This document shows positions 1,488-5,854 of a stretch of DNA of 64,000 nucleotides, in pieces. A program made the translations under genes and the position numbers. Source of the stretch: Spirochaetota bacterium. GTDB taxonomy: Bacteria > Spirochaetota > UBA4802 > UBA5550. The notes beneath the pieces were generated by a model. The model worked only from the letters and a program-made list of their open reading frames with translations, had not been told where the DNA came from and made no database searches. Every line of letters begins with the position of its first letter. Positions within the stretch are counted from its first letter, which is position 1. The stretch is from positions 3,040,001-3,104,000 of the forward strand of contig OY760686.1 in assembly GCA_963663865.1 (NCBI GenBank), in the 5' to 3' direction.

Positions 1488-2480
1488 TCAAAGCCTTTTT
1501 TTAAACTCAACGAGATCCTGAGGACCGTCAATATCGTTTTCCCATCTGCCGGCGTTCTTCTTTATTCTAAAAAAAACACCCGAATAGTCGGACAAATCGA
1601 GTTTGTAGAGTCTGGACAAAATATCGAGGAAAGTCTGATACAGCTCAGTAAAAACAATGCTCTTTCTTCGGATTTGCCCTACAAGACGATATTTTTTGAG
1701 TTTGATAAGATAATACATAATTTTTGAAATTGAGCTCGGTGTAAGAGCCTTCCTTAGATTGTACAGAAGATTAAGGCTCTGTCTGGCGACAAGACCATCG
1801 ATGCTCATGTGCTTAATAAATGAAGCGCTGTTTCCAATACGCACCGGCCCGTCCGTAAAGTTTACAAAGCTTTTCAGCTTTCCCTTTTTCTGGCCTCTTT
1901 TGAAAAACTTGATCCTATGAGGAAGCCAATTATCCTTTCTCATATCATCATAGTGGACAACACCGTAAATCATTCTTACCGGCACCCCCCTGTAATCGCT
2001 TTCATTTGCGAAGATATCGGTATATGAATCAAAAATATACTCTACATCCTCGGATGTTATTCGGGGGGTATCTCCAAAATATATGTCTACCCGCTGACCG
2101 TATTCGACAAGCGGATAGAAATCCTTCATATGCCCTGCGACAGATTCAGTCATCTGCCTTATTTCAAGATTGTCATAAGCCGAAACGTCCACTGTTTTCG
2201 TAAAGCTCTTGATGTCGTTGTAGACGTAAACCTTTTCGTATATTCTCTTCCCGTTTTTTCTTGCGCCGTAGACGGCATCCAGGACATAGCTTATAATCGG
2301 CCTCCCCTTCACGGAGTAAAGAAACTTGTTCTTCCCCATGTAGAGCTCTTCACCGTCGTATGATTCCTTGATCTCGCGTTCATATTCCCTTCTTGTGGCG
2401 TGATCAACCCTGTTATACCCGGCAAGTATTAGCGCGACAGGACCCATATTACCGCCGCTTTTATCATTCGGTAATTTCAT
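1488..2480 (-). CDS. MobA-like nucleotidyltransferase (NTP_transf_3-like) family protein
   Basis: ALILAG, NKFL..VKGRPIISYVLDAV, FGDTPRIT, NDIDGPQDL motifs; true start may be the internal Met (MGPVALILAG). Confidence 0.65.
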   Translation of the reverse strand: MKLPNDKSGGNMGPVALILAGYNRVDHATRREYEREIKESYDGEELYMGKNKFLYSVKGRPIISYVLDAVYGARKNGKRIYEKVYVYNDIKSFTKTVDVSAYDNLEIRQMTESVAGHMKDFYPLVEYGQRVDIYFGDTPRITSEDVEYIFDSYTDIFANESDYRGVPVRMIYGVVHYDDMRKDNWLPHRIKFFKRGQKKGKLKSFVNFTDGPVRIGNSASFIKHMSIDGLVARQSLNLLYNLRKALTPSSISKIMYYLIKLKKYRLVGQIRRKSIVFTELYQTFLDILSRLYKLDLSDYSGVFFRIKKNAGRWENDIDGPQDLVEFKKRL

Positions 2481-2503
2481 TATTAGAATTCCAAAGTTTA
2501 GAA

Positions 2504-3202
2504 TTATATACCACGGACTTCACAAATATCAGCAAAATCCCTTACCACATCCGCGAGAGCCCTCAGAACATCAGTATGAAGAGGTTCAACAGACGAATAC
2601 TCTTCCCCCAGAAGCGTAGTGCCGGCAGCAAACTGCTGAAGGTAGTATTTTCCGACCTTTCCAACCCTGCCGCCAATTTCCCGCAAAATATTTTCATTCA
2701 CATAACCTGGCACACATGTAGTGCGCAGTTCATATTCGATACCGCTTTTTTTTAACAGATTTGCCGTCTCGGCAATCCTGTAAAAGTCCGCTTCTACCCC
2801 GGTCAGTACAGAATACAGAGAAGGCGAGGTCTTAATATCCAGGGCAGCATACTCAATTGCTTCCGAAGCAAGAAGGCTTTCAACAACTTCCGGGAGCATA
2901 CCATTTGTATCAAGCTTAACGGGAAGCCCCAGCTTACCAACGCAGAGCGCAAAATCAACAATATCCTCATTCAGAGTCGGCTCTCCGCCAGACAGAACTA
3001 CACCGTCAATAAGCCCCTTTCTGGAGGCAAGGTACTGCAGCACGTCCTCTTCCGAGTGGACAGGCAGCTCCCTGCTGTTCAGAGCCAGATCAGGATTGTG
3101 ACAAAAACCGCAGCGCATATTGCACCCTCCGGTAAAGATTACAGTTGAAATCTTCCCGGGATAGTCTACAAGCGATGTTTTATAAAGTCCTCTGATATTC
3201 AT
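2504..3202 (-). CDS. nrdG: Anaerobic ribonucleoside-triphosphate reductase activating protein (radical SAM)
   Basis: SLVDYPGK, GCNMRCGFCHNP (CxxxCxxC), SGGEPT, KLDTNG; downstream of nrdD. Confidence 0.95.
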   Translation of the reverse strand: MNIRGLYKTSLVDYPGKISTVIFTGGCNMRCGFCHNPDLALNSRELPVHSEEDVLQYLASRKGLIDGVVLSGGEPTLNEDIVDFALCVGKLGLPVKLDTNGMLPEVVESLLASEAIEYAALDIKTSPSLYSVLTGVEADFYRIAETANLLKKSGIEYELRTTCVPGYVNENILREIGGRVGKVGKYYLQQFAAGTTLLGEEYSSVEPLHTDVLRALADVVRDFADICEVRGI

Positions 3203-3356
3203 TGGAAAGCACTGTTTCCCTGTTTACGATATATGTTTTTCTTTCTTTAAACTCTTCCTGTTTCCCCCTGTTCCACTGATTGACCGGCCTGAAATAACCC
3301 ACAACCCTTGAATAAACCTCAACCGGTACTTTTACTGTTTTGTTCTTAACGCTCAT
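3180..3356 (-). CDS. Stand-alone glycyl-radical domain of class III RNR (NrdD C-terminal module), 58 aa
   Basis: Manual translation MSVKNKTVKVPVEVYSRVVGYFRPVNQWNRGKQEEFKERKTYIVNRETVLSNEYQRTL*; GGGAGA RBS; overlaps the nrdG start; below the ORF-track size cutoff. Confidence 0.9.
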   Translation of the reverse strand: MSVKNKTVKVPVEVYSRVVGYFRPVNQWNRGKQEEFKERKTYIVNRETVLSNEYQRTL

Positions 3357-3429
3357 TTCAATCTCCCGCCGTAATACGGCTTACTCTAAATAATAATATA
3401 TTAAACTTTTCCCATGACAGCCACTATCT

Positions 3430-5487
3430 CTACTCGTCCTCTACATCAACCTCTACGCCAAATGCCCGCAGATCTTCAGCTGAATGCTCATAGGGGCAAA
3501 ACTTGTGTTCTCCCGGAATATAGCCGTGTACAGGGCAGACACTGAATGTAGGCGTCAGTGAAAAATAAGGCAGATGATATCTGGATGAGACCTTTTTTAC
3601 GAGGGCTTTGACTACATCTATGTCGTCTATTTTCTGACCAAGAAAGAGATGCACAACCGTTCCTCCGGTAAACTTAACCTGAAGATTATCCTGATGGTCA
3701 AGAACTTCGAACATATCACTGGTGTATGAAACAGGAAGATGGACCGAGTTGGTATAATAGGGTTCATCCGAACCTGCTGTGACTATCTCGGGGAACTCCG
3801 AGCGGTCTTTCCTGGCAAGCCTGTAGCTTACACCTTCAGCCGGTGTTGCCTCAAGATTATAAAAATTGCCTGTCTCCTCCTGGAACTCCATTATGCGTTC
3901 TCTCATGAAATCAAGGACTCTCACCGCAAATTCCTTTCCTTCTATTGAAGATATGTCCGCGCCGTGCATATTCAGACAGGCTTCGTTCATTCCGACAAGT
4001 CCTATGGTTGAGAAATGGTTTCCCCAGAACTTGCCGTCCCTGAGCCTTATGTCGCTCAAATAATGCTTTGTGTAGGGATACAGATTGCTTTCAGTAAACT
4101 TCTCAAGCACCTTCCGCTTTATCTCAAGTGAATTGCGGGCGAGCCTCATCAACGACTCCAGAGAAGCGAAAAAATCCTGCTCATTGCCTGTACGGAAAGC
4201 CAGTCTGGGTAGATTTATCGTCACAACCCCGATGCTTCCGGTCAGAGGGTTGGCGCCGAAAAGCCCGCCGCCTCTCTTGCGAAGCTCTCTGTTATCAAGC
4301 CTGAGCCGGCAGCACATTGACCGGGCATCCTCAGGATCCATGTCTGAATTAACATAATTAGCAAAATACGGGATTCCGTAACGGGCCGTCATTTTCCAGA
4401 GGTTATCAAGCTTTGGATTGTTCCAGTCAAAGTCTCTCGTTATGTTGTAGGTCGGAATCGGAAATGTAAAGATTCTGCCCTTTGAATCGCCATCCATGAG
4501 ACACTCGGCAAAAGCAGCATTAAAAATATCCATCTCATCCTGAAATTCGGAGTATGTCTCATTCATGTATTCGCCGCCGATGACGGCATATTCTCCTCCG
4601 ATGTTTGAAGGTACAACAAGATCAAGAGTAACATTGGTAAACGGCGTCTGAAAGCCTACTCTGGTCGGAATGTTCATATTAAAGATGAACTCCTGCAGAC
4701 ACTGTTTCACATCCTTATAGCTAAGCCCGTCATACCTTATAAAGGGGGCAAGATAGGTATCAAAGTTTGAAAAAGCCTGAGCGCCGGCAGATTCACCCTG
4801 CAGGGTGTAAAAGAAGTTAACAATCTGCCCGAGAGCACTTCTGAAATGCCTTGCCGGTCTGCTTTCAATTTTTCCGGGGACACCGCCAAAGCCTCTGATT
4901 AAAAGGTCCTTCAGATCCCACCCGACGCAGTACGCCGAGAGCAGCCCCAGATCATGCAAATGAAAATCTCCCGCGACATGTGAATCCCTTATTTCGGGGG
5001 GATATATCCTCTCAAGCCAATACTTTGCTGTGATGTCGGCGGCAATATGATTGTTAAGGCCCTGAAGCGAATAGCTCATATTGCTGTTCTCGTTTACACG
5101 CCAGTCTGACCTGTCAAGGTACTCCTCTATCAGCTGGACGCCTTCGCCGAGAAGGTTTGCGGCGTCACGCAGATTCCTGTGCTGCTCTCTGTAGATGATG
5201 TAGGCTTTTGCCACTCTGGCATGGCCCCGCTCAATGAGCATTTTTTCGACAAGATCCTGAACATTCTCAACGGTGGGGATGCGGCCGTCTTTAAAAAGTA
5301 TGTCAAGTATTCCTGTAATTGACGCAGTAACAGACTCGGCGGTGTTCCTGTCGCTGCCTCCTACGGCCTCAACAGCCCTATATATAGCGTTAGTGATTTT
5401 ATCTGTATCAAACGGAACGACTCTCCCGTCCCGTTTTCTGATGTATCTGCCCTCCGCGTTCTGTAACATCAAAGGCTCCGTATTCAT
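3430..5487 (-). CDS. nrdD: Class III (anaerobic) ribonucleoside-triphosphate reductase with ATP-cone, lacking the Gly-radical C-terminus
   Basis: N-terminal ATP cone (IRKRDGRVVPFD..KI), SMCCRL, GSIGVVTINL, NLEATPAEG, YYTNS, FTGGTV, CPVHG. Confidence 0.95.
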   Translation of the reverse strand: MNTEPLMLQNAEGRYIRKRDGRVVPFDTDKITNAIYRAVEAVGGSDRNTAESVTASITGILDILFKDGRIPTVENVQDLVEKMLIERGHARVAKAYIIYREQHRNLRDAANLLGEGVQLIEEYLDRSDWRVNENSNMSYSLQGLNNHIAADITAKYWLERIYPPEIRDSHVAGDFHLHDLGLLSAYCVGWDLKDLLIRGFGGVPGKIESRPARHFRSALGQIVNFFYTLQGESAGAQAFSNFDTYLAPFIRYDGLSYKDVKQCLQEFIFNMNIPTRVGFQTPFTNVTLDLVVPSNIGGEYAVIGGEYMNETYSEFQDEMDIFNAAFAECLMDGDSKGRIFTFPIPTYNITRDFDWNNPKLDNLWKMTARYGIPYFANYVNSDMDPEDARSMCCRLRLDNRELRKRGGGLFGANPLTGSIGVVTINLPRLAFRTGNEQDFFASLESLMRLARNSLEIKRKVLEKFTESNLYPYTKHYLSDIRLRDGKFWGNHFSTIGLVGMNEACLNMHGADISSIEGKEFAVRVLDFMRERIMEFQEETGNFYNLEATPAEGVSYRLARKDRSEFPEIVTAGSDEPYYTNSVHLPVSYTSDMFEVLDHQDNLQVKFTGGTVVHLFLGQKIDDIDVVKALVKKVSSRYHLPYFSLTPTFSVCPVHGYIPGEHKFCPYEHSAEDLRAFGVEVDVEDE

Positions 5488-5854
5488 TATTTTGTATTTT
5501 TAATAGATATATCGACGATTATATTCAGCAAATCCCAATAACACGGTATGTACAAAAACCAGGCCGTGCCTGAGGGGGAAAACGCAAACAACGAAAAACA
5601 GCTTAACGCTGCTCAGTATCCCGATTTTTATACATTTTATCCAATTTGGATGAGGAGATTCGCCCAGGCTCACATTCTGATTACCTTAAGTGACATAATC
5701 TGAACCATCGCCATATATCAAGTTACCATTTCAAACAAAAGAGTCAAATAATTTTTGCGACATAATACCATTAATTTCAAAAAGCCCGCAAAAATTAAAA
5801 TTACCGTATTTCCCCCGGTTCAGGGCTGCCGCCTTCTCCTCAATCAGACCACAA

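Follow-up and report, generated by a model that had tools for sequence, protein, structure and literature searches.

A probable two-polypeptide anaerobic ribonucleotide reductase in Spirochaetota with its radical glycine on a separate 58-residue protein

Where does an anaerobic ribonucleotide reductase hold its radical glycine if the gene for its catalytic barrel does not encode one? This question is raised by an nrdD locus in a 64,000-nt stretch of DNA from a Spirochaetota bacterium (assembly GCA_963663865.1, contig OY760686.1, positions 3,040,001 to 3,104,000), hereafter the window, in whose positions the locus is numbered. Sequence and open reading frames (ORFs) were read together and gave three tightly packed genes on the minus strand, in the order nrdD body, small Gly-loop ORF (the tail) and nrdG. 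The R-x-x-G-Y motif is missing from the large ORF, which ends in a C-x2-H ... C-x3-H segment followed by an acidic stretch; the radical glycine is present in trans, on the 58-residue ORF, and not in cis with the barrel. Judged from sequence and structure models, we are confident that the locus encodes a working two-polypeptide class III (anaerobic) ribonucleotide reductase together with its activase. The three-component architecture of body, radical carrier and activase proposed in an earlier note on this DNA is thereby supported, with an artefact and a recent pseudogenisation both excluded.

The NRDD and NF006126 profiles split cleanly between the two ORFs. The large ORF matched Pfam NRDD with 589 bits (cut-off 26.2) over positions 1-526 of 562, and the small ORF matched positions 533-562 of 562 of the same profile with 39.3 bits (cut-off 26.2). 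Likewise, NCBIfam NF006126 was covered by the large ORF at positions 4-649 of 684 (1035.3 bits; cut-off 548) and by the small ORF at positions 650-682. The large ORF furthermore matched TIGR02487 (499.6 bits vs a cut-off of 326.35) and, at its N-terminus, the Pfam ATP-cone (82 bits), and the nrdG product matched TIGR02495 NrdG2 (186.7 bits; cut-off 131.15) as well as Pfam Radical_SAM and Fer4_12. NRDD, not Gly_radical or PFL, was the sole Pfam match of the small ORF, and its NCBIfam matches were NrdD models only. The 685-residue NrdD therefore does stop after its Zn-site region without R-x-x-G-Y, as the earlier note had stated, with the profile ending at 649 of 684. The further statement that the small ORF encodes exactly the missing part holds for the NRDD and NF006126 positions but not for the zinc-ribbon half of the canonical glycyl-radical domain, which stays on the large protein; the small protein comprises the Gly loop and the C-terminal tail only. 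Similar short NrdD-like ORFs, which had been surmised to exist in databases, amount to 792 clusters of 31-102 residues, some of them labelled 'anaerobic ribonucleoside-triphosphate reductase' by NCBI or JGI. No solved chain matched the small-protein profile at E up to 0.01, and PHROGs holds no family for the small protein: five of eight small stand-alone Gly-loop proteins (minis) had no match there and three of eight matched just the tail end of NrdD large-subunit families.

To exclude an assembly error as the cause of the split, the junction was checked on contigs assembled from public runs of two other studies; the identical X1, maybe the source itself, was not counted. X4 record 18 spans 2606-5700 with 0 differences and 0 gaps, and X8 record 25 spans the whole 3.3-kb stretch with 46 substitutions. 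Indels are listed solely at 2605, 5497 and 5554, i.e. outside 3180-3430. With these independent contigs crossing the junction, an assembly error is ruled out and the split is no artefact.

Using the body as query, we analyzed 31 genomes of the own family and order; the small ORF was searched against 401 genomes from across the phylum (150 of 248 matches listed). The body was found in 30 of the 31 genomes with open frames of ~680-755 residues, the sole miss being genome G014, which is 65% complete. A separate short ORF with the Gly motif lies just downstream of nrdD in 26 of 29 relatives' loci, the other three being cut by contig ends, in line with the co-occurrence that the earlier note had suggested looking for. 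The small ORF matched 199 of the 401 phylum genomes and 77 of 79 in the own order, where, among the matches listed, every one lies in an open frame of 49-107 residues. Instead of all close relatives having a fused NrdD, which the earlier note had considered, the opposite was observed: the own-order bodies form one all-split clade (31/31, support 100) in a tree of 115 bodies described below. The body is 71-78% identical to that of 25 relatives, and in all 26 aligned bodies the cysteine loop M391-C392-C393, the flap residues 133-138 and the residues C651, P652, H654, G655, Y656, G659, C664, P665 and H668 are invariant. Within the acidic extension, G677 is invariant and E671 and L673 nearly so. 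The tail exhibits 16 invariant columns among 26 orthologues, and its core yielded a pN (proportion of nonsynonymous differences) of 0.086 vs a pS (synonymous) of 0.849 (29 core codons, 325 pairs). The small ORF is thus under strong purifying selection. Two loci of the order deviate in detail. In genome G016, two tandem small ORFs (L005:3632-3808 and about 3866-4036) follow one nrdD body, and only the second ends in the motif that overlaps nrdG. In genome G023 (L030, G023:C1:392813-394830) the nrdD body consists of two pieces and contains one in-frame TGA, upstream of an intact small ORF; gene breakage, sequencing error or recoding may account for this interrupted body.

Recoding could also be invoked for the window itself, in that frameshifting, read-through or ribosome hopping over the spacer would yield a single-chain NrdD. 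The two ORFs do lie next to each other on the same strand, nothing terminator-like separates them, and excerpts of PMC3653736 report phage nrdD genes broken up by introns or other elements. However, the spacer measures 10-139 nt across the 25 relatives and body and tail stand in all three relative frames (0, 1 or 2), with no conserved geometry, which argues against frameshifting or read-through. The small ORF moreover has its own ATG and Shine-Dalgarno sequence here, a Shine-Dalgarno-like tetramer precedes 18 of the 26 called small-ORF starts, no Rfam match was found within 5 kb around the locus at E up to 0.1, and orphan and phage copies of the small gene lie far from body genes. We consider recoding exceedingly unlikely.

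The body retains the residues with which a glycyl radical would be expected to work. C393 aligns with position 420 of the 743-residue chain 8p23_A of P. copri NrdD, whose initiator is given as Cys416 of 739 native residues in the available part of PMC11226230; assuming that the solved chain carries a 4-residue tag, C393 is likely the counterpart of this initiator cysteine. Text of the same source describes the NxN flap of the P. copri enzyme as contacting the glycyl-radical domain, and that domain as highly mobile and disordered once dATP binds the ATP-cone. By analogy, it is possible that in the split enzyme, which retains the ATP-cone, dATP inhibition would release the tail. The putative zinc site differs between the two forms. 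One-piece relatives in the phylum (loci L049-L051) have C-x2-H ... C-x2-C, i.e. a Cys/His-Cys-Cys site, with the Gly-loop strand 3-5 residues further on and no acidic extension, whereas split bodies have C-x2-H ... C-x3-H, a Cys2His2 pattern, followed by a conserved acidic extension of 17-30 residues. The zinc site of phage T4 NrdD consists of four cysteines.

We modelled body residues 118-685 with the tail in three runs, alongside three controls, using our own alignments, so that the calibration counts are only rough. The body-tail model reached interface scores (ipSAE, interaction prediction score from aligned errors) of 0.91, 0.92 and 0.90, compared with 0.00 for the best of the controls; in calibration, 116 of 157 solved complexes attained the mark, as did 2 of 215 mismatched pairs. 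Contacts agreed between runs to at least 93% and numbered 191-204, and the partner pLDDT (predicted local distance difference test) was at least 78. In the predicted interface, tail residues 10-16 pair with body strands 647-653 and 660-664, and the flap residues 132-136 and 138 as well as the extension residues 672-673 and 676-683 are also taken in. The body-tail part of the complex prediction suggested in the earlier note thus places the peptide on the body (ipSAE 0.91), a fit that probably reflects likeness to solved one-piece NrdD. As one-piece structures have been solved for P. copri (8p23, 9d3x), T. maritima (4coi, 4u3e) and phage T4 (1h78), and the alignments were our own, the score can be read only as a fit like that of the one-piece enzyme.

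Alternatively, the small protein might serve mainly to regulate NrdG, as its decoy substrate or to store a radical, instead of providing the neighbouring body with its catalytic radical site. Its coupling by a 23-nt overlap is to nrdG and not to the body gene, and in other phyla stand-alone copies occur beside one-piece NrdD. Nevertheless, the body lacks a glycine of its own while keeping an invariant cysteine loop and flap, and the small protein comprises the exact missing profile positions and fits the vacant site in the model. Such a role in place of catalysis is in our judgement very unlikely.

The features of the locus are collected in Table 1. The 73-nt spacer, the GGGAGA ribosome-binding site, the change of reading frame (offset 1 between the small and the large ORF) and the overlap with nrdG, all described in the earlier note, were read directly in the sequence. 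A promoter and terminator scan found no terminator-like site in the 73-nt spacer, and a promoter-like match at 3420..3393 within it lies within chance (7 found vs 5.9 expected). The overlap of the tail stop with the nrdG start suggests coupled translation. Many relatives have a Y-E-Y-Q-G-N-type ending of the small ORF that would correspond to the nrdG start in another frame, the overlap having been read directly in the window. Directly downstream of nrdG on the same strand lies a 330-residue ORF (1488-2480, minus strand) with a sub-threshold match to a MobA-like nucleotidyltransferase (17.8 bits vs 27).

Table 1 Features of the split nrdD locus (positions in the 64,000-nt window)
Feature	Position	Strand	Remark
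nrdD body, 685-aa large subunit	3430..5487	-	ATP-cone residues 15-104; class III barrel 133-666; without radical glycine
Spacer between body and tail, 73 nt	3357..3429	-	read directly
Shine-Dalgarno sequence GGGAGA	3367..3362	-	5 nt ahead of tail ATG at 3356
nrdD tail, 58-aa small subunit	3180..3356	-	R17-V-V-G20-Y21; radical glycine G20 codon 3297-3299
nrdG, 232-aa radical-SAM (S-adenosylmethionine) activase	2504..3202	-	start shares 23 nt (3180-3202) with end of small ORF
Codon of likely thiyl-radical cysteine Cys393 (M391-C392-C393, finger loop)	4309..4311	-	from alignment
E133-N134-S135-N136-M137-S138, counterpart of NxN flap	5074..5091	-	aligned with flap segment of 8p23
Zinc-ribbon remnant C651-x2-H654 ... 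C664-x3-H668 (two Cys, two His)	3484..3537	-	putative metal site
Acidic C-terminal extension of large subunit, residues 669-685	3433..3483	-	candidate 'clasp' for small subunit, from the model

The split is not confined to the own order. In other Spirochaetota families 16 of 20 loci are split, most of them of the same kind as in the window, with a tail devoid of cysteine. In genomes G040, G043 and G094 the tail has a cysteine shortly ahead of the Gly-loop strand, at a distance of a few residues, and in G040 and G094 the upstream body stops right after the third zinc ligand, a sequence pattern that would have the two chains complete the zinc site jointly. This divided pattern of zinc ligands was likewise observed in non-spirochaete loci. 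For a wider scan, one genome per species was searched with an alignment of cysteine-bearing tails as query, yielding at least 588 relatives, the best 80 of which were examined. Of these, 54 have a one-piece NrdD and a further one combines the one-piece form with an adjacent mini; 24 have no glycine in cis, and one case is unclear. The body lies directly upstream in 18 of the 24, and 13 of these 18 are outside Spirochaetota, in Desulfuromonadales and other Thermodesulfobacteriota, Syntrophotalea, Muiribacteriota, Planctomycetia, Victivallaceae and unclassified lineages. One-piece forms with a long linker between zinc site and Gly loop occur within split clades, namely in family f28 (L052, L154) and in genome G173 (L150), where the linker reads like a translated spacer plus the N-terminus of a tail. 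A FastTree phylogeny of 115 bodies, 57 split and 58 one-piece (L181 and L220 assigned as one-piece by eye; L199 unclassified), shows at least seven changes between the two states; the tree is a quick one with no inferred root, so that these changes may be gains or losses alike. The split is real, ancient and functional-looking.

Copies of the small gene are also dispersed outside such operons. Among the matches listed, two or more short-frame hits at separate sites occur in at least 23 of the 78 own-order genomes with a match, the window's own genome (G000) being one of the 78. All 15 extra places fetched from 11 genomes contain an intact ORF of 54-85 residues with the Gly motif, and no NrdD body was found among the 87 neighbouring ORFs scanned (L036:1-1284, L043:4332-5021 and one further ORF were left out). 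In most non-phage orphans a Ser precedes the glycine. The orphan contexts recur across genera. In three genomes of two genera (L035:4007-4174, L038:3999-4187, L041:4041-4208) the orphan is the first gene and is followed by birA (biotin ligase/repressor) and a sodium:solute symporter gene. In L034, L039, L040 and L047 it is convergent with an extracytoplasmic-function (ECF) sigma operon, which in L039 and L047 includes a Metal_resist/LTXXQ periplasmic-stress gene, an LTXXQ gene lying further upstream in L040. The L034 and L040 orphans are downstream of a PAS histidine kinase, and a neighbour in L040 (904-1749) encodes a radical-SAM protein with Fer4_12 and ferredoxin-type cluster domains. Others are located in or beside phage-like or mobile-type genes (L044, with Mu Gam and GemA; L046, L048 and L042).

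Phage contigs also carry the small gene. IMG/VR contains 87 stretches with a relative of the small protein; of the 80 kept, 76 have it in an ORF below 160 residues and only two in a full NrdD. A tblastn search of the 80 loci with the body and NrdG matched these two only, so 78 of 80 are without a body. Among ten viral loci with scanned neighbours, a terminase was found in three, a major head protein with a head maturation protease in one, Mu-type transposition genes in one and endolysin-type matches in three. Only two GenBank phage records match the small protein. In the ANMV-1 virus of uncultured archaea (KP703175.1, L236:2680-3114), a 144-residue coding sequence annotated 'anaerobic ribonucleoside triphosphate reductase' is 68% identical to the small ORF over 31 residues; it adjoins a prohead protease gene, and the 6 kb shown contain no body gene. 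Five genomes reached from non-spirochaete loci (G405-G409) were also examined for minis. G405 and G407 combine a split NrdD with three and one further minis, respectively, the Lentisphaeria genomes G406 and G408 have a one-piece NrdD with two minis each located elsewhere, and in G409 a zinc-ribbon mini lies directly downstream of a one-piece NrdD. This arrangement is seen in L224, from a Candidatus Moranbacteria metagenome-assembled genome, with a one-piece NrdD at 1634-3316 and an 87-residue ORF of zinc ribbon and Gly loop directly downstream at 3357-3620. A one-piece NrdD with stand-alone minis, as in L224, G406, G408 and G409, is the GrcA-like situation proper. The dispersed copies fit a spare-part role but do not show it.

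Taken together, we propose the following working scheme for the split enzyme. The tail, which consists of the G20 loop and the stretch that in the usual enzyme passes over the barrel top, would have its translation initiated separately, at a start codon and ribosome-binding site of its own, and would dock by strand pairing on body residues 647-653 and 660-664, where the acidic C-terminal extension of the body may hold it, with G20 pushed into the ten-stranded barrel. NrdG would abstract the glycine hydrogen, on the free peptide or on the complex, and the radical would shuttle to C393 in each turnover, as in one-piece NrdD. More speculatively, a tail cleaved by O2 at G20 could be swapped for a fresh one without the body being remade. 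The tail would then be a replaceable carrier, and O2 damage would cost the cell a 58-residue peptide instead of a 685-residue enzyme, a notion made plausible by the orphan, phage-borne and one-piece-associated minis.

Several points weigh against this proposal, the first of which concerns the need for the enzyme. The own genome also encodes a one-piece 946-residue NrdD with its own Gly loop, outside the window (G000:C1:1172175-1174097; L032:1348-4188, minus strand), with an extra N-terminal region, a TIGR02487 score of 370 bits and a Gly loop that is weakly similar to the small ORF (43% over 30 residues, E 5e-4); the split enzyme need therefore not be essential here. A class I/II-type reductase (catalytic domain PF02867) is encoded in 26 of 31 related genomes, and none was detected in the own genome, which is 98% complete and a single contig. 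The 946-residue NrdD is found in only 4 of 31 genomes (G000, G013, G018 and G028), which are four of the five without PF02867. In the fifth, G026 (94% complete), there is no second NrdD and the split NrdD is the sole reductase detected; the argument for essentiality that this genome offers is a weak one. As to the fit of the two pieces, the complex score probably reflects the likeness to solved one-piece NrdD and shows that the pieces fit, not that they bind, and the cysteine-loop residues 391-393 are not among the confident-interface residues listed. Finally, 8 of the 26 called small-ORF starts have no Shine-Dalgarno-like tetramer ahead of them, which we think is due to the script having chosen the most upstream start codon.

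The one-piece NrdD also raises the possibility that the locus is decaying, i.e. that the body is a relic, deoxynucleoside triphosphates (dNTPs) are supplied by the 946-residue enzyme and the small ORF is a leftover, a state that the interrupted G023 body would resemble. This is hard to reconcile with a body of 71-78% identity across the order and invariant catalytic segments, with a tail pN/pS near 0.1 and no indel listed across strains in 3180-3430, and with the occurrence of the split type in 30 of 31 genomes vs 4 of 31 for the 946-residue type. We give decay hardly any credence.

A separate objection concerns the exchange of tails. The own genome has the small gene solely as the operon copy, with no second one elsewhere, and the operon is accounted for just as well by a stable heterodimer whose parts are never exchanged. 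In this alternative the split is real and functional but selectively neutral: fission in a linker would have led to an obligate, permanent heterodimer with no exchange or repair, and the extra copies would serve something else or nothing. The long-linker one-piece forms within split clades (f28, G173) and the at least seven state changes make fission and fusion seem easy, the own genome keeps its single small gene in the operon, and the large predicted interface of 191-204 contacts suggests tight binding. On the other hand, neutral fission does not readily account for the multiple intact copies in at least 23 of 78 own-order genomes among the matches listed, for the 15 of 15 extra loci that are intact with the Gly motif in contexts conserved across genera, for the absence of a body from 78 of 80 phage-contig loci carrying the small gene, or for the stand-alone copies that are kept also beside one-piece NrdD. 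We regard neutral fission as a serious contender that falls only a little short of an even chance. Going further than the exchange of tails at this locus, NrdD-type minis may constitute a general mobile system of 'radical cartridges', charged by NrdG and docking on bodies that lack a Gly loop through gene split or O2 cleavage. Extra chromosomal copies would be kept for this purpose, phages would bring copies along so that dNTP synthesis could resume in a damaged host, and the split operon of the window would be an end state in which the attached copy was given up. This wider scheme is tentative, possible rather than probable.

The split enzyme shares with one-piece NrdD and NrdG the barrel family, the ATP-cone, the cysteine loop, the NxN flap, the Gly-loop sequence and an adjacent NrdG2-type activase. 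It differs in that a gene of its own encodes the Gly loop and C-terminal tail and in that the body has an added acidic extension. GrcA/YfiD of E. coli and Y06I (vs.6) of phage T4 are likewise small stand-alone glycyl-radical-loop proteins, which the activase of the parent enzyme would activate and which include phage-borne copies, T4 vs.6 being mentioned in excerpts of PMC1524935. However, the small ORF belongs to NRDD and not to Gly_radical/PFL, and in contrast to the GrcA/YfiD repair part it holds the sole glycine for its body, the adjacent body having none of its own, and would thus be a constitutive subunit. According to sections of PMC8683613 and PMC13450708, O2 destroys glycyl-radical enzymes by chain cleavage at the radical glycine, and the only known remedy is GrcA/YfiD for pyruvate formate-lyase. 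Only YfiD and Y06I are given as validated spare parts, and ones for other glycyl-radical enzymes are raised as a possibility, in the available portion of Andorfer et al. 2021 (PMC8683613).

Two further systems have an NrdD-like or reductase chain in more than one piece. In the split class II enzyme NrdJa/NrdJb of P. aeruginosa, a C-terminal module is also a separate polypeptide encoded next to the barrel, as described in parts of PMC4520616 and PMC9669993, but this class is B12-dependent and the detached part consists of zinc-finger and IscU-like domains for re-reduction and not of the radical site. The interrupted nrdD genes of T4-like and other phages likewise have more than one coding piece, as excerpts of PMC3653736 describe; they differ in being mobile-element interruptions or unexplained fragmentations inside the body, with no conserved separate gene for the Gly loop, and the word 'glycyl' is absent from that paper. 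A survey of ribonucleotide reductases removed sequences below 400 residues, as stated in a passage of PMC9531940. We found no description of a separately encoded NrdD glycine loop in the full-text literature searched, a scope that takes in the accessible part of PMC4390871 and leaves subscription-only papers and supplements outside. A two-piece NrdD with a separate radical glycine is thus undescribed in the searchable literature, the enzyme class itself being known.

Whether spare parts exist for other glycyl-radical enzymes is an open question of the field, and the split NrdD makes it directly testable: a conserved, detachable 58-residue radical carrier is a ready-made test system for the DNA-precursor enzyme of anaerobes, and with the tail as a minimal peptide substrate one could study the access of NrdG to the glycine. 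The split also offers an explanation for many short 'NrdD' fragments in databases and phage genomes, and surveys that drop sequences below 400 residues or require a cis glycine will miscount class III enzymes.

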